The position numbers were made by a program, and so were the translations under genes. Below the pieces are notes generated by a model, which ran no database searches, was not told where the DNA came from, and saw only the letters and a program-made list of their open reading frames with translations. This document shows positions 5,030-51,866 of a stretch of 64,000 nucleotides of DNA, in pieces. The DNA lies in the NCBI GenBank assembly GCA_963714725.1, contig CAVQPF010000015.1, forward strand, positions 50,213 to 114,212, written 5' to 3'. The DNA comes from Candidatus Bathyarchaeota archaeon. Its GTDB lineage: Archaea; Thermoproteota; Bathyarchaeia; Bathyarchaeales; Bathycorpusculaceae. The first letter of the stretch is position 1. The number at the start of each line of letters is the position of its first letter.

Positions 5030-5569
5030 ATGCATGCGAGAAATTATCGACCTGTAGTGGGACAAGCTTATACTAGAAAAAAGTTTGCGAAAGGTTTTCC
5101 GCCTCCAAAAATAGTGAAATTCACTATGGGCGATACCAAAGCTGCTTTTGAATATGAAATTAGTCTTATCGGCTTAAAAAGAGTTCAAATTCGTCATTCT
5201 GCTCTTGAAGCTGCAAGAATTGCTGTGAATCGTATTCTTAATGATAGATTACTAGAAGAATACTTTTTAAAAATTCGACCCTATCCACACCAAATCCTAA
5301 GGGAAAACAAAATGATTTTTGGAGCTCACGCTGATAGGCTTCAACAAGGAATGCGTAGATCTTTTGGGACTCCAACAGGGTCAGCTGCACGAGTAGAACC
5401 AGGTCAAACCTTAATAACTGTAAAAGTTAATACCAATGGTCTAGACGCTGCTAAACAAGCTCTAAAAAGGGGTAGTTCAAAACTTCCAGTTACTTATAAA
5501 TTAGTAGTTAAAAAAAATAAACCTCCAAAAGCTCCAGATACAGTAGAGCCGGAGAAGGAAAAAATTTGA
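5030..5569 (+). CDS. rpl10e: 50S ribosomal protein L10e (uL16)
   Basis: Recognisable L10e sequence ('RPYPHQILRENKM...GAHADRLQQGMRRSFG'). Confidence 0.85.
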   Translation: MHARNYRPVVGQAYTRKKFAKGFPPPKIVKFTMGDTKAAFEYEISLIGLKRVQIRHSALEAARIAVNRILNDRLLEEYFLKIRPYPHQILRENKMIFGAHADRLQQGMRRSFGTPTGSAARVEPGQTLITVKVNTNGLDAAKQALKRGSSKLPVTYKLVVKKNKPPKAPDTVEPEKEKI

Positions 5570-7982
5570 GCAAATCCAACAATGAACTAATTTTGTGGTT
5601 TGACAAAGTACGAAACACTGATGTTCCTATTGTTGGAGGAAAAAACGCGAGTTTAGGAGAAATGATAAACGCTGGAATGCCTGTTCCACCAGGGTTTGCA
5701 ATTACTGCCTATGCCTATGAAAAATTTATAAAAAAAACCAAAATTAGTGTATCTATCTATAAAATAATTCAAGAAACTATAACAGATCTCGAAGATCCAA
5801 AACAATATGATTCTGCTTCCAAAGAAATCCGCAAACTAATTGAAAAAACAAAAGTCCCAAAAGACATTGTAATCTCAATTAAATCCGCTTACGAAAAACT
5901 CAATAAACAACTAAAAACCAAAAACTCTTTTGTAGCTGTTCGTTCAAGTGCAACAGCTGAAGATCTTCCTGATGCCTCTTTTGCTGGCCAGCAAGATACT
6001 TATTTGGATGTTAAAGGTTTCGATGATCTTCTTGACAAAGTTGTTCATTGTTGGTCGAGTTTGTTTACGCCTCGTGCTATTTTTTATCGTAATGAAAAAG
6101 GCTTTGATCATGATAAGGTTTTCATTAGCGTTGGAGTTCAAAAAATGGTTAATTCACGAGCTGCAGGAGTAATGTTCTCAATAAATCCTGTTACAGGTGT
6201 TAAAAACGAAATCGTTATTGAAGGCAACTATGGTTTGGGAGAAACCGTTGTTTCGGGCATAGTCAATCCTGATGACTTTATACTAGATAAAGAAACTTTG
6301 GAAATAAAAGAAAGACGTCTTGCCCGAAAGACAATTCAGTATTTACGTGATCCTTCAACTGGGAAAACTCTTCATCTAGATGTGCCTGAAAAAAAACAGA
6401 AGGAACCTTGTGTAAATGATGAAGAACTCAACAAGTTGGGCTCTTTAGCTAAAATTATTGAAGATCATTATAACAAACCAATGGATATTGAATGGGCAAT
6501 CGATAAAGACTTGCCTTTTCCAAATAATATGTTTATAGTTCAAGCTCGTCCAGAAACTATATGGGGTGCTAAAGGAATGGAAGAAACATCACAAGATGAA
6601 GAAAAGAAATCTCTGAAGAATTAAAAGTGGTTGTAAAAGGAATTGCAGCTGGAAAAAGAGGATACGGTACAGGGAAAGCAAAAGTTGTTATAATCCTGAT
6701 GAAGCATCTGAAATGATGAAAGGAGACGTTCTCGTAACAGATATGACTAATCCTGATTTTGTACCATTTATGAAAATGGCAAGTGCAATAGTGACTGACA
6801 AAGGTGGAATCACTTCTCATGCAGCAATCGTCAGCCGTGAACTTACTATTCCTTGTGTTGTAGGTACAGAAACAGCCACTAAAGAATTAAAAACTGGAAA
6901 AGAATACACCGTTGACTCAAGAAACGGAGTTATTTACGAAGGTATCATGAAGCAAGCTAAAAATTCAACGACTCCTCAATCAAATATAATCTTTGCAGAT
7001 CCAGCTCCTGTTACTGCTACAAAAATATACATGAATTTAGGTGTACCTGAAAAGATAGAAGCTTATAAAAATATTCCATTCGAAGGCATCGGCTTAATGC
7101 GTACTGAATTCATTTTAGCCAGCACAATAGGTGAACATCCTTTAGCTTTGTTGAAAACGGAAAAAGCCAAGAATTTGTAGATAAAATGGCAGAAGCAATA
7201 GCAACTGTTGCACGAGCGATTCAGCCAAGACCAGTTGTAGTACGATTAAGCGATTTCAAAACAAACGAATACCGAGAATTAAAAGGCGGTAATAAATACG
7301 AAATTGTTGAAGAAAATCCAATGCTTGGTTGGAGAGGTTGTAGTCGATACATAAGCAAGTGGTATAACGAAGCTTTCAGACTTGAATGCCAAGCAATTAA
7401 AAAATGTCGAACTGAATGGGGTCTCAAAAATGTCTAGGTTATGCTTCCAATGGTTCGTACTCTCTGGGAAGCAAAAGCTGTCCTTCAAATCATGAAAGAA
7501 GAAGGTTTAGAGCGTAACAAAGACTTCAAAGTTTGGTTTATGGCTGAAACACCATCAATCGGAATTATGGCAGACGAATTTTCAAAACTTGTTGATGGTT
7601 TTAGTATAGGTTCAAACGACATGACCCAAGGAGTTCTGATGATTGATCGCGACTCTGAGCGTTTAGGTCAAATGGGATACTTCGACGAACGAGACCCAGC
7701 AGTTAAACGCATTATTGCTCACCTTATTAAAGCTGCCCACGAAAACGGTTGCACAGTTACAATCTGCGGTGAGGGTCCATCAAATCTTCCTGACTTCGCA
7801 GAATTCCTGGTTCGAGTTGGAATTGACAGTATATCCGTTAATAACGACGCTGTAGTAACGACCAAAAACACGTTGCAAGCGTAGAACAGAAAATAATCCT
7901 TGAACGTCTTGCTGAACAATCAAAAATACTTCGTTGTTATACTGAAAAAAAATCAAAAATCAATAATGATTTTGAGTTATAA
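5566..7982 (+). pseudogene. ppsA: Phosphoenolpyruvate synthase (ppsA), disrupted by four -1 frameshifts and one in-frame TAG
   Basis: PEP-synthase N-terminal ATP-grasp domain ('VGGKNASLGEM'), phospho-His domain ('GGITSHAAIVSREL') and C-terminal PEP-utilising domain are spread over frames mod1, mod0, mod2, mod1, mod0. Frame switches are near 6612, 6690, 7155 and 7880. A TAG at 7435-7437 sits where Trp is conserved ('GLKNV*VMLP'). The true C-terminus '[17 protein letters not shown]...' ends with TAA at 7980-7982. TTG start overlaps the L10e stop. Confidence 0.7.
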
Positions 7983-8038
7983 CTACTTTAATTTCTCTTC
8001 TAATCTTTTTTATAGGGTTTCTTAGTTCTATTAAAACA

Positions 8039-9047
8039 GTGAATATTATGAAGGCCTTTGATTTTGAAGAAGCAAAAATACTTGCAGAAATAATTACCCG
8101 AGCTCCAAAACGTGTTTTGCTTCAACTACCTGAAGGCCTAAAATCGGAAGCTCCTAATATATCTAAAATTATTGAAAAAGCAGGTGTCCTTCCCATAATA
8201 TCAGGTGATCCTTGCTATGGGGCTTGTGATTTACCTGAAGCTGAAGTGGAACGGTTCGATATTGATCTTATACTTCACTTTGGACACTCAAAAATGATAA
8301 AAAACGAAAAAGTTTCAACAATCTATGTTGCGGTCAAATCAACTGCTAAAATAACTAAGACTATGGAAAATTCTCTTCGACTTTTAAAAGATTATACCAA
8401 AATTGGATTAGTTACCACAATTCAACATCTTCAGACTCTAAAATCGTTCAAGATCTTCTTACAAATGCTGGAAAAACAGTTTTTATCGGAAATTCAGATC
8501 AAATGCTATGCAGGGGCAAGTTACTGGTTGCAATTATAGCAACGTTAAATGTATCTCGGATAAAGTTGAAGTTTTTCTTTTTATTGGAGGGGGTAACTTT
8601 CATGCATTAGGTGTAGCTCTAAATACAACTAAACCAACTATTCAAGTAAATCCTTTTAATCAAAAAGTCAATTTGTTAAACCTTAAAGTGAATAAATTAC
8701 TTCAAAAACACTGGGATTTAATCCAAAAAGCAAAAAAAGCTAAAAACTTTGGAATATTCGTCAGTTTAAAACCTGGACAAGAAAATTTTAAAAATGCACT
8801 AAAAATTAAAAAAATAATCGAAAAAATAGGCAACTGTGCAGTAATCATTCTTGTTAGAGAAATATTGCCAGAAGTTTTAATGCAATTTCCAACTATTGAT
8901 GCTTACGTTAACACAGCCTGTCCTAGAATTTCTTTTGACGATCCATTGAAATTCTTACGGCCTGTTTTATCAATTAATGAATTTAAGGTGCTTTCTGGTG
9001 AATGCTCATGGGAAGAAATTATCAAGATCGGATTATTCGAAAAATAG
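8039..9047 (+). pseudogene. dph2: Diphthamide synthesis enzyme Dph2, disrupted by two -1 frameshifts
   Basis: Aligns with the archaeal Dph2 pattern ('LPEGL', 'GLVTTIQHLQTLK', 'GKTVFIGNSDQ', 'GQVTGCNYS', 'FIGGGNFHALG', 'VNTACPRI'). The reading frame moves mod2, mod1, mod0, with frame switches at ~8466 and ~8495-8510. Confidence 0.65.
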
Positions 9048-33802: not shown

Positions 33803-34729
33803 TCAAACTCTGAAATACTCAAAACCCTGTTCTACAAGCTTTTTTGCTTCATCAACTGTTTTTGCTGTTGAACTATGATATTCTTCTGCTCCAAAATCTA
33901 TGTACTGCAAATAAAACAATGCTGTTTCAAGTTTTTTCCAGCATAGTTTTTGTTTTTTAAACGAAACATCTTTAGTTTGATTATACGTTTTGCAAGCTTG
34001 ATAATGTCTCAGATTGTAGAGTCTAATCGTGAGTAAACTTCGATCATTAAGTTTTTTGCTTTGTCTTTTTTTGTATTTTACCCATGATTTTGTCATCCAC
34101 TTCGACTCGGGGAAAGGACAATTCTTTTCACCGATTTTCGATAGATAAACTTGAAGCATTGCAGAAGTTTTATTTTTCAACTTAATTGTTCTGCTTGAGT
34201 GTCCTTTTCTGCCTCTTATCGAGATTGTCTCTCTATCAAAGTCGATATCTCGTAATGTAACTCTACTAAGCTCTATTGGCATAGCACCAGTTTCTTTGAG
34301 AAGCGTGAAGATTACCTTGTATTTCCATCCACATGAAAGAATTATCTTGTTCAAAATCTCTTCAGAAGGAATACGTGGTTTATTTTGTTCCCATCTGTAT
34401 TTTGGTCGTTCCCAAACCATGTTGTTGATTAAAGTATAGTAGTTGTAAGCTTTGACGAGATTTCCTTTAAAACCATTGTTTACATTCTTGTTTGCGCTGA
34501 ACTCTTTAACACTATCAGGTTCAGACAAATCAGAATTAACAGCAAGATGTCTGAGATAAAATCCTAAAATCTTAAAAGTCTGTTCTTGTAGACCACTATT
34601 TTTAAGTTTGAGCAGAGTGTTTACTATTTTGCCTTTCACTTGGGGTGAGGGTGCTAATCTAGTAGTTTGGGCCCGTAGTCTAGTACGGATTATGACACTG
34701 GCCTGCGGAGCCGGAGATCCTGGGTTCAA
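33803..34729 (-). CDS. int: Tyrosine recombinase/integrase, SSV-type (catalytic int(C) part, extended N-terminally through attR and antisense tRNA-Arg)
   Basis: Catalytic-box-like 'RGRKGHSSRTIKL' (Arg), 'LYNLRHYQA' (H-x-x-R) and C-terminal Tyr region. The first ~14 codons are antisense to tRNA-Arg outside the repeat. An alternative GTG start ('VKGKIVN...') lies within the repeat. Confidence 0.65.
   Translation of the reverse strand: MNPGSPAPQASVIIRTRLRAQTTRLAPSPQVKGKIVNTLLKLKNSGLQEQTFKILGFYLRHLAVNSDLSEPDSVKEFSANKNVNNGFKGNLVKAYNYYTLINNMVWERPKYRWEQNKPRIPSEEILNKIILSCGWKYKVIFTLLKETGAMPIELSRVTLRDIDFDRETISIRGRKGHSSRTIKLKNKTSAMLQVYLSKIGEKNCPFPESKWMTKSWVKYKKRQSKKLNDRSLLTIRLYNLRHYQACKTYNQTKDVSFKKQKLCWKKLETALFYLQYIDFGAEEYHSSTAKTVDEAKKLVEQGFEYFRV
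34595..34689. repeat. Right 95-bp direct repeat (attR), overlapping the 5' end of tRNA-Arg
   Basis: Identical to 33063-33157. 34669-34689 is the tRNA-Arg 5' acceptor/D region. Confidence 0.75.
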
Positions 34730-34744
34730 ATCCCAGCGGGCCCA
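34669..34744 (+). tRNA. tRNA-Arg (anticodon GCG)
   Basis: 76 nt. Acceptor 'GGGCCCG/CGGGCCC', anticodon stem-loop 'CTGGC-CTGCGGA-GCCGG', T-arm 'CTGGGTTCAAATCCCAG', discriminator A, no encoded CCA. D-loop is slightly long ('AGTACGGATTA'). Confidence 0.7.
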
Positions 34745-34790
34745 CTAACATTTTTAAATAAATTCTTAACCTTTTATTTACAAGTAGAAT

Positions 34791-35717
34791 TTATTGAATT
34801 AGTTTTTCCCAATTATTAACTAACTCAATGACTTCTTGAACAGGTTGGCCACCATAACTTCTTAATCGTTTTCGAAGCTCAAAATTATTTACTACTTTCT
34901 TCTGAAAATCTAATAGCTTGCTAGCTCCAGCAGCAAAATAAAGAATACCATCAATACCAGTTCGAGCACATCGAACACTAGTGGTTAGCAATTCAGCGGG
35001 TGGGGGGACATCTTTTGGGCTATCTCCTGGGCATGAAACATAGAGGCTGATATAAACTGGTTTTTTTAAGATTTTTTTGAATCCTCTTGCTAACATCTCC
35101 CAATACCAGGGAGTTGCATAGCTTTTACTTAGCATTACAACATTAAATGCGTCAGCATATTTTGCAAAATCTTCGAAGTCAACTCCATAGCGTTCATAAG
35201 CGGTAATTGGATCCGGTTGAATACACATGACTAACTCTTTTTTTACATGTTCTCTGATTTGTGCAATGTAATCAGTAACCTCTTTTCGTCGCCACTCCAG
35301 CCATGAAAGCCCACTTTTTTTCCATTTTTTGTCACATCTTAAACACGTACAATGACCATGATCCGCAAAATATTGGCTATTTAGCCATATACCTGGTGAT
35401 TGCCGATCAACTTCTTCAATATATTTTATTTGTTCTTCTCTATGTTCCGGTTGTGTTGCACACACTACATCCCAGTAAATATTATATTTGTAATTCCCAA
35501 ACTTGGCGGGACCAAGGAGTGATTGTGAAATCCAATTTTTATTATTTCGTGCAGCCACATTATCAGCAAAAACTGCAATGTTGCTATACATGTCTTGTCT
35601 GGGTGTAATTCTTTTACCTGTTTCTTGTTTAACACGTAAAACGTGAAAATCAAAACCTTGAGCTTTTTCTGGCTCATATACATATGCACCAAATCTCAAA
35701 TTATTCACCTGTCTCAA
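34791..35717 (-). CDS. Hypothetical protein (Cys/His-containing, possibly TIM-barrel hydrolase-like)
   Basis: 308 aa ORF directly downstream of tRNA-Arg. Contains 'HGHCTCLRCDKKW'. No confident family. Confidence 0.25.
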   Translation of the reverse strand: MRQVNNLRFGAYVYEPEKAQGFDFHVLRVKQETGKRITPRQDMYSNIAVFADNVAARNNKNWISQSLLGPAKFGNYKYNIYWDVVCATQPEHREEQIKYIEEVDRQSPGIWLNSQYFADHGHCTCLRCDKKWKKSGLSWLEWRRKEVTDYIAQIREHVKKELVMCIQPDPITAYERYGVDFEDFAKYADAFNVVMLSKSYATPWYWEMLARGFKKILKKPVYISLYVSCPGDSPKDVPPPAELLTTSVRCARTGIDGILYFAAGASKLLDFQKKVVNNFELRKRLRSYGGQPVQEVIELVNNWEKLIQ

Positions 35718-46827: not shown

Positions 46828-47018
46828 AAAATTTTCCTAATGCACTCTTTTGTTCATCTTGGTATAAATATGCTCCTTAAATTCTTAAAAATAAAACCAG
46901 TTACTCTCTCTTTTTTATTTTTTTTATTTAATTTAACTGATATCATGTACAAAAACATACACAAGACTTAATATTCTATTTTTGTAGGAATTACCTTTTG
47001 TATTTAGGAGAAAATTGT

Positions 47019-48416
47019 ATGCCTCGCAGAAAAATACTTCTTGATGAAGATCAGATACCAAAACAGTGGTATAATATAACCCCTGATTTGCCTAAACCCA
47101 TTCCCCCTTTCATTGATCCAGCAACAAGGGAACCAGGAGTGGGAATAGTTCCTAGGATATTTCCGATGGAAATTATCGGTCAAGAATTGAGCAAAGAACG
47201 ATGGATAGATATTCCTGAAGCTGTTAGAGAGGTCTATAAGTTATGGAGACCCACTCCCTTATTTAGAGCTATAAATTTAGAAAAAGCTTTGAAAACACCT
47301 GCTAAAATCTATTATAAATATGAAGGAGTTAGCCCTTCTGGAAGTCATAAACCTAATACGGCTGTTCCTCAAGCTTATTATAACATGAAAGCTGGTACCA
47401 AACGTTTAACCACAGAGACTGGAGCAGGTCAATGGGGATCTGCTTTAGCTTTTAGTGCAAACGTTTTTGGATTAGACGCTACAATTTATATGGTCCGAGC
47501 GAGCTATGACCAAAAACCCTACAGAAGAATAATGATGGAGCTTTTTGGTGCTGAATGCTATCCTAGTCCCAGTGAACAAACCGAAGCTGGTAGAAATATT
47601 CTGAAAGAAGATCCTGATAACAAAGGCAGTTTAGGTATAGCAATAAGTGAAGCAGTTGAAGACGCGCTTGTAAATGAAAAAGAAGCCAAATATGCTATCG
47701 GTAGTGTTTTCAATCATGTTTTAATTCATCAGACTGTCGAAGGCTTGGAAGCAAAGAAACAGCTTGAAATTGCTGGAGATTATCCAGATGTAATTTTTGG
47801 GTGCATTGGTGGTGGTAGTAGTTTCTCTGGATTTTTCTGGCCTTTCTTTTATGATAAAGTCGCAGGAAAAGCACCAAAAGAAACAAGATTTGTTGCGACA
47901 GAGGCAACTGCTTGTCCTAAAGTAACTAAAGGCGAATATGTTTATGATCATGGTGATACTGCTGGTATAACTCCACTGGTTCCAATGCACACTCTAGGTC
48001 ATGACTTTATACCTGCTCCAATTCATGCAGGTGGTCTACGTTATCACGGAATTGCCCCATCATTAAGTGTTTTGCGCAGTGAAAATCAGATAGAAGCAAA
48101 AGCTTATAATCAAATTGAAGTATTTGATGCTGCTAAACTTTTTCTTCAAACTGAAGGAATAATTCCTGCCCCGGAACCTTCTCATGCAATAAAAGCTGTA
48201 GTTGACGAAGCACTAAAATGTAAAGAAACTGGTGAAGAAAAAGTCCTGGCCTTTGTGCTTTGTGGTCATGGTCACTTTGACATGCAAGCATACGATTCTT
48301 ATCTATCTGGAAATCTTCTTCCTTATGAATATCCGGCAGAAAAAGTAGCAGCAGCTATGTTAAAACTGAAACTCCGTTATCCTTGGCTAGACGAAGTTAA
48401 TAAAAAATTTATCTAA
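47019..48416 (+). CDS. trpB2: TrpB2-type tryptophan synthase beta-like PLP enzyme
   Basis: '[18 protein letters not shown]', 'SGSHKPNTA', '[15 protein letters not shown]', '[13 protein letters not shown]' TrpB2 signatures. AGGAG RBS 8 nt upstream of the ATG. Confidence 0.7.
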
Positions 48417-48579
48417 ATATATTAGACTGAATGACAAAAAAATGATGTTGAAAATCCATCATCTTTTTTATTGTTTATCTGTTATTTTTTTTGTATTAAA
48501 GAACTTATTTTAGACTTTTTTAGTTTATTTTATGGAAAAAGAAAAATAATTAACAATTGAATCAAGATTTGATGCGAAA

Positions 48580-49689
48580 TTGAAAACTTTGGGTTTCATT
48601 ATTAATCCAGTAGCCGGAATGGGTGGTGCGGTTGGTCTCAAAGGTACTGATGGAACAGACATTCTAAATAAAGCTATACGTTTAGGAGCAAAACCTATTG
48701 CTCAGAAAAGGGCTGAACATTTTCTCCTAGAATTGAATAATCTTATGCCGAATGTAAAACTTTTTGTTGGTGGTGGAATTATGGGTGAAAACGCAATTAA
48801 AAAATTTGGTTTTGATTATAAAATTTTTGGGGAAAGAAAAAAATCAACAACCTCAGAAGATACTATAAACCTTGCTTCTATTTTAGCTAAGTCAGATTTG
48901 GATCTTTTAGTTTTTTGTGGGGGTGATGGAACAGCCCGAGACATAGAAAAAGCAGTTAATCTCTCTATTCCTGTTTTAGGTGTTCCAACAGGAGTAAAAA
49001 TGCATAGTGGTGTTTTTGCAGTAAATCCGATAGCTGCGGCTAAAATTGCGGTAAAATTCCTTAATGATAAGTTACCTGTAAAAGAAACAGAAATTATGGA
49101 TGTGGATGAAAAAGCGTTTAGAAATGGTCACCTTTCTGCGCATCTTTATGGTTATGTGTTATCTCCCTACGAACCCCTTCTGTTACAGGGAAACAAGTTG
49201 GGCAGTCCAACAACAGAAAGTGAATTGCGTAATCAGGCTGCCATATCGGTTTATGTTATCGAAAAGATGGTAGACAATACACTCTATATTATTGGACCCG
49301 GAACCACAACCAGAACAATAACTGATCTATTAGATGCAAATAAGACTCTTCTAGGCGTAGATCTTTTCTATAATAAAAAAATTTTTGCCCAAGATGTGAA
49401 TGAGAAAAAAATATTAGATGCAATAAATACAAAAAAAGCGAAAATAATAGTTACGCCGATTGGTGGTCAAGGTTTTGTTTTTGGTAGAGGCAATCAACAG
49501 ATAAGTTCTGCTGTAATAAAAGCTGTAGGTTTGAAAAATATTATTGTAGTTTCTTCCAAAAGCAAATTATCTAATTTACAACATCTGCGAGTTGATACTG
49601 GCGATCAAAAATTAGATGATTTATTTAGAGCAAATAAACTTAAAGTAATAATTGATTATGGAATTGAGCATATAGTGAAAGTTGAATGA
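48580..49689 (+). CDS. COG3199-like ATP-NAD/diacylglycerol-kinase-fold protein
   Basis: 'GFIINPVAGMGGAVGLKGTDG' N-terminal motif and 'FCGGDGTARD'. Specific function not assigned. Confidence 0.4.
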   Translation: MKTLGFIINPVAGMGGAVGLKGTDGTDILNKAIRLGAKPIAQKRAEHFLLELNNLMPNVKLFVGGGIMGENAIKKFGFDYKIFGERKKSTTSEDTINLASILAKSDLDLLVFCGGDGTARDIEKAVNLSIPVLGVPTGVKMHSGVFAVNPIAAAKIAVKFLNDKLPVKETEIMDVDEKAFRNGHLSAHLYGYVLSPYEPLLLQGNKLGSPTTESELRNQAAISVYVIEKMVDNTLYIIGPGTTTRTITDLLDANKTLLGVDLFYNKKIFAQDVNEKKILDAINTKKAKIIVTPIGGQGFVFGRGNQQISSAVIKAVGLKNIIVVSSKSKLSNLQHLRVDTGDQKLDDLFRANKLKVIIDYGIEHIVKVE

Positions 49690-49780
49690 TATACTGCTGC
49701 TATTCATCAAATAGGTAATAAATAATAGACAATCAGAACTATCCAATTAATGAAAAATAACAAATAAGGAAGACGAAAAT

Positions 49781-50885
49781 TTGATTTCAATTAATATGCC
49801 AATAATTGGAGACGCCGAAGTTAAAGCAGTTGTTGAAGTTTTAAGGCATGGCCCATTAACTAGTGCACTTGGTGAAGGTCCTAAAGTTTCTGCTTTCGAA
49901 AAAGAATTTGCAAAGTTTGCTAATGTTTCTTATTCTATAGCAGTTAATACTGGTACTTCTGCTTTGCATTTAGCTATCGTTTCAGCTGGTGTAAAACCTG
50001 GAGATGAAGTGATACTACCGAGTTTTACGTTTGTTGCCACCGCCGAAGCAATAGTAATGGCGGGTGGAAAACCTGTTTTTGTTGACATTGACCCTATATC
50101 TTTCAATATTAACCCTGATAAAATTGAAGAAAAAATCACTATTAACACTAAAGTCATAATGCCTGTAGATCTTTTTGGTCTACCTGCAGATTTGAATCCT
50201 ATTCGAAAAATCGCTATGGACCATGATATAGCCATAGTTGAGGATGCTGCCCAGGCTCATGGTGCAAAATATTCGGGAAAACCAGTTGGTTTGTTAGCAA
50301 ACTCGACTTGTTGGAGTTTCTATGCTAGCAAGAACATGACAACTGGAGAAGGTGGAATTATTACTACTAATAATGCTGAAATGGCCAAATTTTTACGAAT
50401 GTTAAGATCACATGGAGAAAAAACAAAATACTCTTCTTTGACTCTGGGCTATAACTATCGTATGTCAGAAATGCAAGCCGCTTTGGGGTTGGTTCAATTA
50501 GATAAACTACCCTATTTTGTAGCTAAACGTACTGCTAACGCAAAAAAACTGAACGCAAATTCTGTCAAAAGAAAAACGGCTAAAACTACCTTTCAATTCG
50601 GAAGTTATGACTAGTGGTTGGAATCTATATACTGTTAAATTAAAAGATTCAACTGAAAAAGAAAGAGATGAACTAGTTAATACACTTAGGACAAAAGGTA
50701 TTGGTGCTGCAGTGTATTATGTCAATCCTGTGCATCTTATGCCATTTTATAGAGAAAATTTTGGATTGTATAAACTTCCTGAAACTGAGGAAGCTGCAAA
50801 AAAAGTATTTTCTTTACCCGTTCATCCTGGTCTTCAAGATTCTCAAATTGAGTACATAGCTCAAACTTTACTTAATTCATTATGA
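49781..50885 (+). pseudogene. DegT/DnrJ/EryC1/StrS-family PLP-dependent sugar aminotransferase, +1 frameshift
   Basis: N-terminal 277-aa ORF ('GPKVSAFEKEFA...SALHLAIV', 'DAAQAHGA', 'SFYASKNMTTGEGG') plus a 92-aa C-terminal ORF in another frame ('HLMPFYRENFG...SLPVHPGL'). Frame change at an A5 run, 50571-50579. Confidence 0.6.
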
Positions 50886-51006
50886 TTGTTAAAAAATTGT
50901 AGTTTGATCAACTAAATAAAATGCAAAAGTTAAATACTCACTTAAGATTTTATTTGAGCCTGTCAGAAAATATCCAATCTTATATTCTTTGAAGGAATAG
51001 AAACCA

Positions 51007-51390
51007 ATGGTTGAGAATACTGATATTTCAAGAATTAAAATTCGATTTTCGATTTCCAATCTAGGAGAAGCTGAAGGAGAATTTTCGAGATTTTTAGCGC
51101 CTAGATCTATTGATGCACTACTTCGCAAACTGCCATTTGAAGGGCGACTCACTTTGTGGAAAGAGGAAGTATATTTCGAAATACCTGTTAAACTAGGGCT
51201 GGAAAAACCTAAATCAAGGATAAAGGAAGGTACTATAGCTTTTTGGCCAATCGGTAGTGCTTTCTGTATTTTTTTTGGAAAGTCCCAACCTTTTAGTCCA
51301 GTTACTGTTTTGGGAAAAATAACTAAAAATCTAGAGCTATTTAAACAGGCAAAAAATGGCAACGTTATGAAAGTTGAGCTCTCTGTTTAA
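51007..51390 (+). CDS. Cyclophilin-like-fold protein (COG2164/DUF3830-like)
   Basis: 127 aa. 'GEAEGEFSRFLAPRSIDALLRKLPFEGRLTLWKEEVYFEIP' resembles the COG2164 family. Confidence 0.4.
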   Translation: MVENTDISRIKIRFSISNLGEAEGEFSRFLAPRSIDALLRKLPFEGRLTLWKEEVYFEIPVKLGLEKPKSRIKEGTIAFWPIGSAFCIFFGKSQPFSPVTVLGKITKNLELFKQAKNGNVMKVELSV

Positions 51391-51866
51391 TACGCTAAAG
51401 CTGAGTCTTCCCACATCTGAAGCAAACGTTTGCATTCATCTTTGATGCTTTTGTTTTTACTCTCTTTTTTCAATTTCTCTAAAAATTCTATTCTTTTATT
51501 TACTGAGCGTTTCTCTGCTTGCCCACCGTAATACTCTTTGCCTTCAAGATATTCTTTCATGTGGTTAACTTTTTGAACAAAAAGACTTGCTGCATCAACA
51601 GGATTTTCAACAGCAAACTTGTTTGCCCAAATAACCGCTTCTGTCTCACGAAGTTGAGTTAAACCATCAATTTCAGTTATTTCTCTGATATAAGTTCTCA
51701 ATAACTCGTAATATCCCACACTCTTTAACAAATCAAGAGATTCGTTAACTTTTTCTTTAAATTTTTGTGTTCCTTCAACTTTTAGGATATGTTTGTAGCC
51801 TTGATCGAGGAGGTTTTTTGCTGTTTGTACCTCTTTTGTAGTATAAACTTTTTCAGGAAATTTCAT
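51387..51866 (-). CDS. Hypothetical protein
   Basis: 159 aa ORF with coding-like composition. No motif recognised. Confidence 0.2.
   Translation of the reverse strand: MKFPEKVYTTKEVQTAKNLLDQGYKHILKVEGTQKFKEKVNESLDLLKSVGYYELLRTYIREITEIDGLTQLRETEAVIWANKFAVENPVDAASLFVQKVNHMKEYLEGKEYYGGQAEKRSVNKRIEFLEKLKKESKNKSIKDECKRLLQMWEDSALAY

Follow-up and report, generated by a model that had tools for sequence, protein, structure and literature searches.

In natural mosaic genes, such as the pneumococcal pbp genes, the mixed blocks are tens to hundreds of bases long, come from donors that are usually less than 20% diverged, and leave the reading frame intact. Mosaic sequences are also known from assembly: where divergent alleles are collapsed, the consensus becomes a mosaic with apparent frameshifts, and nearby variants misalign reads and give rise to indels, a precedent being the collapsed assembly of Trypanosoma brucei (PMC8445201). 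Strain collapse has also been described for the assembler Flye (PMC8302730). In such assemblies the frameshifts and truncated open reading frames (ORFs) lie where variants shift the alignments, and they vanish once the haplotypes are separated. Metagenome-assembled genomes (MAGs) built from Nanopore reads only, such as those of Microflora Danica (PMC12313526), are a further comparison, and Nanopore assemblies have also been the subject of an R10.4 evaluation (PMC9262707). Ordinary indel errors in such genomes are scattered, favour homopolymers and come without foreign alleles.

The ppsA gene in the window (the whole 64-kb stretch of Bathyarchaeia DNA analysed here) resembles each of these systems in part. 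Like the pneumococcal pbp mosaics, it is a core gene in which one stretch is foreign and the flanks are native; unlike them, its foreign sites are unlinked, its donor is ~30% diverged and its frame is broken four times. As in collapsed-allele assemblies, the consensus fits neither parent and the damage is local in otherwise good sequence, whereas collapsed alleles lie a few percent apart, and here the parents are ~30% apart, the damage covers 1.3 kb of one gene and the second parent comes from another Bathyarchaeia clade. Genes split by single bases, as in Nanopore-only MAGs, occur in three related contigs (L001, L083 and L084) and in the DegT aminotransferase and dph2 genes of the window itself, in contrast to the ppsA lesions, which are clustered, lie mostly outside homopolymers and sit in a blended segment. 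We consider it probable (about 0.65) that these lesions are an artefact, the indels and the stop having arisen when two sequences were merged into one long-read consensus. The features concerned are listed in Table 1.

Table 1 Positions of ppsA, its parts and lesions, and the adjoining dph2 gene in the window
Feature	Position	Strand	Description
ppsA, whole gene	5566-7982	+	five pieces in changing frames; TAA stop
ppsA 5' part	5566..6614	+	TTG start, ATP-grasp/PPDK_N; native, one frame
ppsA deletion no. 1, 1 nt	6614..6615	+	frame 0 -> 2; 5' edge of mosaic segment
Mosaic segment of ppsA	6615..7910	+	linker, phospho-His domain, most of PEP-binding domain
ppsA deletion no. 2, 1 nt	6688..6689	+	frame 2 -> 1
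ppsA deletion, 3 nt	6721..6722	+	in frame, one codon lost
ppsA deletion no. 3, 1 nt	7144..7145	+	frame 1 -> 0
ppsA in-frame TAG	7435..7437	+	one base off native TGG (Trp)
ppsA deletion no. 4, 1 nt	7862..7869	+	frame 0 -> 2; near 3' edge of mosaic segment
ppsA 3' tail and stop	7911..7982	+	native sequence again; TAA
dph2 (diphthamide synthesis)	8039..9047	+	split by 1-nt deletions at 8446 and 8517; not mosaic

Joined by hand across the breaks, ppsA encodes an 806-aa full-length PEP synthase that exceeds the cut-offs of the PEP synthase equivalogs NF005057 (1051 bits, cut-off 598) and TIGR01418 (1014 bits, cut-off 740), both scores being valid only for the gene hand-joined over its four shifts. 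The joined protein also matches the Pfam domains PPDK_N (E = 2.5e-119), PEP-utilizers (6.2e-26) and PEP-utilizers_C (6.1e-75), which, with the NF005057 match, bears out the statement of an earlier note on this DNA that all PEP-synthase domains are present. The five separate pieces cover successive profile ranges of these domains with their order kept, and the TSHAAIV and CGEGPS motifs (phospho-His and Cys) are unbroken. An intact Bathyarchaeia protein of 807 aa shares 93% identity with the joined protein, and the gene order uL16-ppsA-dph2 is conserved. Compared with PpsA (pyruvate, water dikinase; NF005057, TIGR01418), the window gene shares all three domains, the motifs and their order, yet as written it encodes no full-length product: instead of one uninterrupted frame for an ~800-aa enzyme it follows the path 0 -> 2 -> 1 -> 0 -> 2, which corresponds to four single-base deletions and confirms the four -1 shifts of the earlier note, and it is interrupted by one TAG.

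The collinear pieces are all that speaks in favour of programmed recoding, that is, frameshifting at four sites together with read-through or reassignment of the TAG, and we give this explanation hardly any chance of being right. The closest relatives are in one open frame at all five places, a finding on which programmed frameshifting was rejected, and their bases at the four sites differ from those of the window, with no shared shift signal evident. In addition, TAG terminates 8 of the 55 long ORFs in the window and is an ordinary stop, which led us to dismiss TAG reassignment and pyrrolysine as well.

Lesion sites were placed by alignment to L001 and L002, two syntenic contigs with intact ppsA genes of 807 aa that carry none of the window's lesions; the DNA around the window ppsA is 96.7% identical to L001 over 18 kb. 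A fixed pseudogene, with the same lesions in related strains, was accordingly not seen. The aligned deletions lie at about 6615, 6689, 7145 and 7863-7869, which upholds the first two of the positions proposed earlier (~6612 and ~6690) and moves the others (~7155 and ~7880) by 10-17 nt; the motifs that had been singled out at the latter two are not lesions, 'gaaaacgg' being identical in L001 and L001 having the same length at 'gcgtag'. In the order of Table 1, the window reads TCTCT-GAAG against TCTATTGAAG in L001 and L002; TTGT-TATAAT against TTGTATATAG in L001, outside any homopolymer; CCTTTA-GCTT against CCTTTAAGCTT in L001 and L002; and, among clustered differences, ACGAC-CAAAAAC against TCCACACAAAAAC in L001. 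Runs of even two bases are involved only at 7145 (AA -> A) and possibly at 6615 (TT -> T). Since at most two of the four deletions fall in two-base runs, they are not typical homopolymer errors, and homopolymer base loss, which had been raised as a possible cause, fits one or two of the sites at most. At the site of the 3-nt deletion, all 14 of the 14 other displayed loci have three extra bases (CCT, GCA(A), AAA or AAG). The TAG had been described as replacing a conserved Trp codon; close relatives do have TGG there, but the column varies among 81 loci, with TGG in 27 and a Tyr codon in 54 (TAC 37, TAT 17), and a stop is found in no other locus. The distant-clade codon TAC has the same middle A as the TAG.

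Every ppsA lesion falls inside a segment (about 6615-7910) that is itself abnormal. Of the 1340 sites between 6561 and 7900, 157 differ between the window and L001, compared with 17 of 995 for the 5' part of ppsA; this contradicts for the damaged part the high residual conservation that had been ascribed to the gene. The damaged 3' 1.3 kb is ~7 times more diverged from the nearest relative than the flanks, which are 97-98% identical to L001, and window-specific substitutions per 500 nt number 30, 35 and 63 within the segment, against about 5 in the flanks. The 5' part, with 98.3% nucleotide identity to L001, covers positions 2-326 of the 328 in the PPDK_N profile and has 8 synonymous and 1 non-synonymous window-specific changes. 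The 3' tail shows the own-clade state at 17 of 19 informative sites, its residues being 91% identical to the protein P0001 and ~48% identical to the distant group.

The window-specific changes in the segment largely copy another lineage, 95 of 127 having the same base as distant loci, among them L013 and L058. These matching loci have a GC content of 41-45%, compared with 32% in the window's own clade, and the two parental versions are ~30% apart across the segment. Synonymous changes outnumber non-synonymous ones (78 versus 48), and the three codon positions have 35, 16 and 75 changes, respectively. Because of this synonymous and third-position excess and the copying of distant bases, the extra substitutions are neither random errors nor neutral decay; the latter is ruled out as their source by the codon-position bias, and the even codon positions and dN/dS near 1 of relaxed selection are not what the segment displays. 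Neither parent accounts for 37-42 of the changes, compared with about 23 expected from the flank rate. Counts of private bases as low as that of the window also occur in real lineages, in a set of 80 sequences with saturated third positions, and such counts do not separate a real lineage from a blend. A single L013-like donor does almost as well as a mixture in explaining the foreign bases, leaving 37 sites unaccounted for where ordinary strain divergence would give about 23. We considered and rejected the idea that the foreign part is too consensus-like for a single donor: ~0.77 of its changes match the distant-clade majority, which equals the real-sequence maximum of 0.77, and one L013-like parent is therefore enough. 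In the species-representative genomes scanned for a donor of the segment, the best amino-acid identity was 89%, and the best identity at the nucleotide level was 86.8%; neither these comparisons nor the protein search described below yielded a near-identical allele.

The own and foreign bases in the segment are not arranged in tracts. Among 339 informative sites we counted 143 switches between own and foreign states, compared with 138-143 (SD 10) in simulations of independent sites; conversion tracts are thus absent, and the longest foreign run comprises 7 informative sites. By our own estimate, foreign tracts of at least 10 informative sites would roughly halve the number of switches. Alleles private to L001 (present in ≤5% of other loci) are kept in the window at 5 of 9 sites, interspersed among foreign sites, and under a looser definition at 24 of 40, with 34% expected from homoplasy (binomial P = 0.0009). 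As these alleles persist in it, the segment does not represent one foreign lineage. At 6946 an own base directly adjoins a foreign base at 6947, and the segment as a whole is a blend of two parents without linkage between neighbouring variant sites. Single codons, too, may be blended. Seven residues are seen in no other locus, and four of them (6845, 7366, 7435 and 7759) fit a codon blend, being one base off the own codon with the altered base equal to that of the foreign codons. TAG (at 7435) could blend TGG with TAC; ACA could combine TCA with AGC, at a Ser that all 81 loci share; AAC could combine AAA with GAC; and ACT could combine GCT with AAC or AGC. Each of these hybrid-looking codons is one base from the native one, and a plain point mutation would fit too.

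A blend of this kind could in principle be real, with distant Bathyarchaeia DNA having replaced or patch-converted the 3' 1.3 kb and left a hybrid ppsA dead, and dph2 dead with it. For Sulfolobus there are reports of discontinuous short-patch conversion. The blend and the lesions are physically present in the sequence, the segment edges (about 6615 and 7910) are fairly sharp, the DNA immediately beyond these edges has many 15-mers in common with distant loci and could have served as recombination anchors, and one L013-like donor nearly suffices. A single local event also predicts what is seen at uL16 and the thermosome gene in the window: the former has the most shared 15-mers of all and only ordinary changes, the latter is clean, and neither is mosaic. 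We nevertheless regard such a genuine mosaic pseudogene as unlikely. The independent-site switch count demands patches of a few nucleotides, introduced dozens of times, between parents whose divergence of about 30% is far beyond the known tolerance of homologous recombination. The segment lacks the excess of unexplained substitutions expected after six disabling lesions, its indels are all deletions, and dph2 next door would have to have been inactivated independently. The lesions are missing from both relatives, and no similar allele was found in a search of 5.8 billion proteins with the mosaic C-terminal 230 aa, whose best match reached 93%; in the two ppsA searches taken together, no identity >93% occurs among the matches listed. 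Exact-sequence look-up for independent copies of the lesions returned no record for the ppsA fragments, and none for uL16 and a 557-aa ORF from the window. That ~30%-diverged ppsA DNA was taken up in dozens of tiny patches, as short-patch conversion in an extreme form, leaving a fresh pseudogene for a key enzyme of gluconeogenesis beside an equally fresh pseudo-dph2, appears to us quite improbable.

Single-base indels are not confined to ppsA. The dph2 gene is intact, with 333 aa, in L001 and L002; in the window its two ORFs span positions 1-113 and 130-299 of the Diphthamide_syn profile, one of the two deletions (8517) shortening GGGGG to GGGG, and both lying within the one 200-nt stretch of the gene that shares many 15-mers with distant loci. 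The DegT aminotransferase gene has a 1-nt insertion at about 50552. In all, seven coding single-base indels were found in the 64-kb window, of which ~40 kb was aligned to relatives and the remainder judged from the ORF map only, and six of the seven lie within 1.9 kb. The dph2 deletions, the DegT insertion, the 3-nt ppsA deletion and the abnormal divergence of the segment had gone unmentioned in the earlier note. Outside the window, two genes of the L001 contig, for a PALP protein and a methyltransferase, contain indel clusters of their own, and ppsA is in 2-4 pieces in two contigs of the same ENA series, L083 and L084. The L002 contig is a Microflora Danica MAG, from a project that used Nanopore-only metaFlye assembly with one round of Medaka (PMC12313526). 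We infer that the window, too, stems from a long-read assembly.

The indels at 8517 and 50552, together with the unbroken catalytic motifs, would also suit a native, conserved ppsA that suffered random homopolymer errors or point mutations of very recent date, without a second sequence playing any part. This account seems to us very improbable: it leaves unexplained ~130 extra substitutions in the same 1.3 kb, ~75% of which copy the distant clade, it is at odds with the clustering of six of the seven coding indels and with deletion sites that are mostly not homopolymers, and it is contradicted by the mosaic itself. Of the two causes that the earlier note had offered, recent inactivation or assembly errors, the evidence favours the second, and the question is no longer one of decay or homopolymer error; it is whether the segment is a merged consensus or a real mosaic.

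If the merged-consensus reading is correct, 6615-7910 would be no single organism's sequence, and would instead represent the consensus of two very different versions of ppsA. One parent would be the genome's own L001-like allele, and the other would resemble the versions of a distant Bathyarchaeia clade with higher GC content (L013, L010 and L058 types). With each column decided separately, own and foreign bases would follow one another randomly; at places of poor alignment between the versions, the consensus would drop single bases and once a whole codon, and TGG and TAC blended at one codon would yield TAG. The mixing would then be the work of assembly or polishing software, and the cell would have had no part in it. 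The foreign version may have come from reads of co-occurring relatives mapped onto ppsA, or from a co-existing strain with a foreign allele whose reads were anchored by identical flanks. Cross-mapping driven by nucleotide conservation alone was rejected, as local identity correlates only weakly with the mosaic pattern (rho 0.42, P = 0.09) and uL16 and the thermosome gene are unaffected; with both of these conserved genes free of blending, cross-mapping in its simple form fails to account for a lone 1.3-kb hit. A co-existing strain with a foreign allele might explain it better. Against a merged consensus stand the ~30% divergence of the parents, which is much for a read mapper to tolerate, the only modestly higher density of shared 15-mers in the affected half of ppsA, and the location of both dph2 deletions outside the mosaic.

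At face value, the window would describe a Bathyarchaeia population that has just lost PEP synthase and the adjoining diphthamide synthesis, altering the prediction of its carbon metabolism. The loss is most likely an artefact, and should therefore be given no weight when metabolism is reconstructed or pseudogenes are counted from this genome. For MAGs in general, frameshifts clustered where divergence rises abruptly and locally, and where unlinked bases copy another lineage, are a warning sign; the pattern points to a merged consensus over gene decay and is detectable by sequence comparison without the reads. If the mosaic were real, it would reflect unusual recombination between very distant archaeal lineages; if ppsA is a merged consensus, PEP synthase is most likely functional in the organism.

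In a three-frame translation of the ppsA region (5566–7990), the PEP synthase reading passes through frames 0, 2, 1, 0 and 2, with a TAG in frame at 7435–7437, and its individual ORFs match successive stretches of three profiles (PPDK_N, PEP-utilizers, PEP-utilizers_C). Joined by hand across the shifts, the 806-aa product contains all three Pfam domains and scores 1051 bits against NF005057, the NCBIfam PEP synthase equivalog (cut-off 598 bits); the motifs TSHAAIV (phospho-His) and CGEGPS are present. The earlier note's description of a PEP synthase gene broken by four frame changes and a stop codon is thus borne out. Bathyarchaeia PEP synthases matching the joined protein run into the thousands, led by P0001, an intact protein of 807 aa at 93% identity.

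Two syntenic contigs of close relatives, L001 (ENA ERZ25039603, contig_29555; 96.7% identity to the window over 18 kb) and L002 (MFD03804.bin.2.28; 88.9% identity), share the gene order uL16–ppsA–dph2, with both ppsA (807 aa) and dph2 (333 aa) intact, which argues against a pseudogene fixed in related strains. Of four base-level deletion sites proposed earlier, two (~7155 and ~7880) lie 10–17 nt away from the aligned lesions, and the strings named there are equally long in L001. For practical purposes programmed recoding is excluded: both relatives read in frame at each lesion site, and TAG serves as a normal terminator in the window (8 of 55 ORFs). Of the seven coding single-base indels found in the 64-kb window, six fall inside 1.9 kb. 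Homopolymers are absent at most ppsA and dph2 deletion sites; dph2 deletion 8517 changes GGGGG to GGGG, and 8446 is not homopolymeric.

Lesions and hybrid-looking codons in the window and in the L001 contig
Feature	Position	Strand	Details
ppsA, 1-nt deletions	~6615, ~6689, ~7145, 7863–7869	+	Relative to L001 and L002
ppsA, loss of a whole codon (3 nt)	~6722	+	Relative to L001 and L002; inside the same 1.9-kb stretch as the six 1-nt indels
dph2, next to ppsA	8039–9047; deletions 8446, 8517		Broken relative to L001/L002 by two 1-nt deletions, spaced 71 nt
Codon ACT	6845		GCT with AAC or AGC
Codon AAC	7366		AAA with GAC
Codon TAG	7435		Own TGG with foreign TAC
Codon ACA	7759		TCA with AGC, both serine codons; Ser in each of 81 loci
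DegT/DnrJ/EryC1-family aminotransferase	49781–50882		Falls into two ORFs of 277 aa and 110 aa (profile positions 3–253 and 262–359)
PALP-family gene, L001 contig	L085 7789–9021 (window 46998–48416)		Broken by L001-only single-base insertions into 133-, 106- and 90-aa pieces

With L002 as the outgroup to tell window changes from L001 changes, substitutions specific to the window occur at ~5 per 500 nt over the 18 kb and rise to 30, 35 and 63 per 500 nt in 6501–8000, where L001-specific changes stay at 7–10. Between 6561 and 7900, 157 of 1340 sites distinguish the window from L001, compared with 17 of 995 in the 5' portion of ppsA, so the supposed high residual conservation, a premise of the earlier note, fails for the damaged part. 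The extra changes comprise 78 synonymous and 48 non-synonymous substitutions (35/16/75 by codon position). In a comparison with ppsA at 80 loci in species-representative genomes of Bathyarchaeia, 125 of 127 window-specific bases recur in at least one other locus, and 95 agree with a distant clade (L058, L013, L056, L010, L019 and others). This copying, together with the synonymous excess and the codon-position pattern, shows that the extra changes are not noise or neutral decay. A native gene carrying homopolymer errors or fresh point mutations, the simpler picture first proposed, leaves these ~130 extra changes copying another lineage unexplained, and we consider it very improbable. The distant clade is GC-richer (41–45% versus 32% in the window's own clade), which accounts for the GC bump at 6–8 kb. 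The order uL16–ppsA–dph2 is common to the window's clade (L001, L002, L004; ~32–33% GC) and the distant clade (L010, L013, L058 and others; 41–45% GC), a marked difference in composition inside one class.

No close match to the affected segment (6615–7910) was found, the best nucleotide identity among the loci being 86.8% and the best protein identity in a search of 5.8 billion proteins being 93%. Five of nine alleles private to the L001 lineage (shared by ≤5% of other loci) are kept, and under a looser definition 24 of 40, against 34% predicted by homoplasy (P = 0.0009). A single foreign lineage was rejected as the source, since the segment has no close locus or protein and L001-private alleles are still carried. 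It is sister-like to L001 yet lacks states common to the whole L001–L002–L004–L070 clade, which no single sequence could combine; the segment is therefore a blend of two sequences, roughly two thirds own (L001-like) and one third foreign (distant-clade). Own alleles sit among foreign ones (6946 own, 6947 foreign; 7722 foreign, 7725 own, 7730 foreign). Across 339 informative sites, 143 switches of state are counted; simulations of independent sites, with local proportions kept, gave 138–143 switches (sd 10), while foreign tracts of at least ten informative sites would, by our estimate, give roughly half as many. The mixing effectively runs base by base, without tracts. The window has seven residues that no other locus shows, and at four of these the codon is one base off the own codon, the changed base being that of the foreign codons there. 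These hybrid-looking codons favour a blend; yet one substitution in the native codon would suffice for each, making them supportive, not decisive.

Calling a consensus column by column over a pile-up of mixed reads would yield a site-by-site blend whose indels are deletions only. Such a blend, with parents ~30% apart and only deletions, fits this origin, unlike known outcomes of cellular recombination. In a published precedent, divergent alleles collapsed into a mosaic consensus with apparent frameshifts, which arose as nearby variants misaligned reads and so caused indels (PMC8445201). We therefore regard the ppsA lesions as probable artefacts (probability about 0.65). Where the earlier note offered assembly error or very recent inactivation, assembly error is favoured, with a merged consensus, not slips in homopolymers, as the mechanism. 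A genuine mosaic pseudogene appears unlikely: it would need dozens of few-base patches from a donor ~30% diverged and a separate, independent hit on dph2, and random substitutions are not in excess despite six disabling lesions. Both dph2 deletions lie outside the blended segment, in a region itself not mosaic, and within the gene's most cross-clade-conserved 200 nt, the sole dph2 stretch rich in distant-locus 15-mers.

Simple cross-mapping of foreign reads onto conserved genes would also hit uL16, which shares the most 15-mers with distant loci, and the thermosome gene, yet both are clean; local conservation correlates only weakly with blending. As a variant of the merged consensus, a co-existing strain of the same species might carry a foreign ppsA 3' allele, its reads being anchored by identical flanks, which fits the sharp edges and a single L013-like parent better. 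Short-read de Bruijn-graph assemblers need every k-mer in a read and so would not produce switches every few bases; if the lesions are artefacts, we infer that the window comes from a pile-up-based consensus. L002 belongs to Microflora Danica, a Nanopore project based on metaFlye and a single Medaka round (PMC12313526), and L001 probably does too, judged by its ENA accession series.

Sister contigs carry damage of their own. The PALP-family gene, intact in the window (472 aa) and L002 (465 aa), is broken in the L001 contig, where L001-specific substitutions climb locally to 33 per 500 nt; this resembles the ppsA case, in a different gene and a different assembly. A 432-aa methyltransferase in L001 (8176–9296) is split into 147 and 204 aa. 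Two contigs of the same ENA series, L083 and L084 (ERZ25039480, ERZ25039519), contain many split genes, with ppsA in four pieces in L083 and in two, plus a split PCNA, in L084. The surrounding data (Nanopore relatives, indel clusters in the L001 contig, split genes in others of its series) are thus of the right kind for a merged consensus.

Elsewhere in the window, the split of the DegT-family gene, intact in both relatives (362–363 aa), is caused by a 1-nt insertion at ~50552 (GAACG versus GACG in L001). Around it (47500–51500; NAD kinase, DegT and neighbours), window- and L001-specific substitutions are up two- to three-fold over the rest of 34.5–56 kb, suggesting that this stretch is by nature more variable or recombines. 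Two neighbouring 308-aa ORFs on the minus strand (33803–35717) may be tandem paralogues; a predicted tRNA-Arg(GCG) on the plus strand (34669–34745) overlaps the start of the first.

As biology, the broken ppsA is probably not a real feature; the value of the finding lies in the caution it urges and in a sequence-only test for such artefacts.
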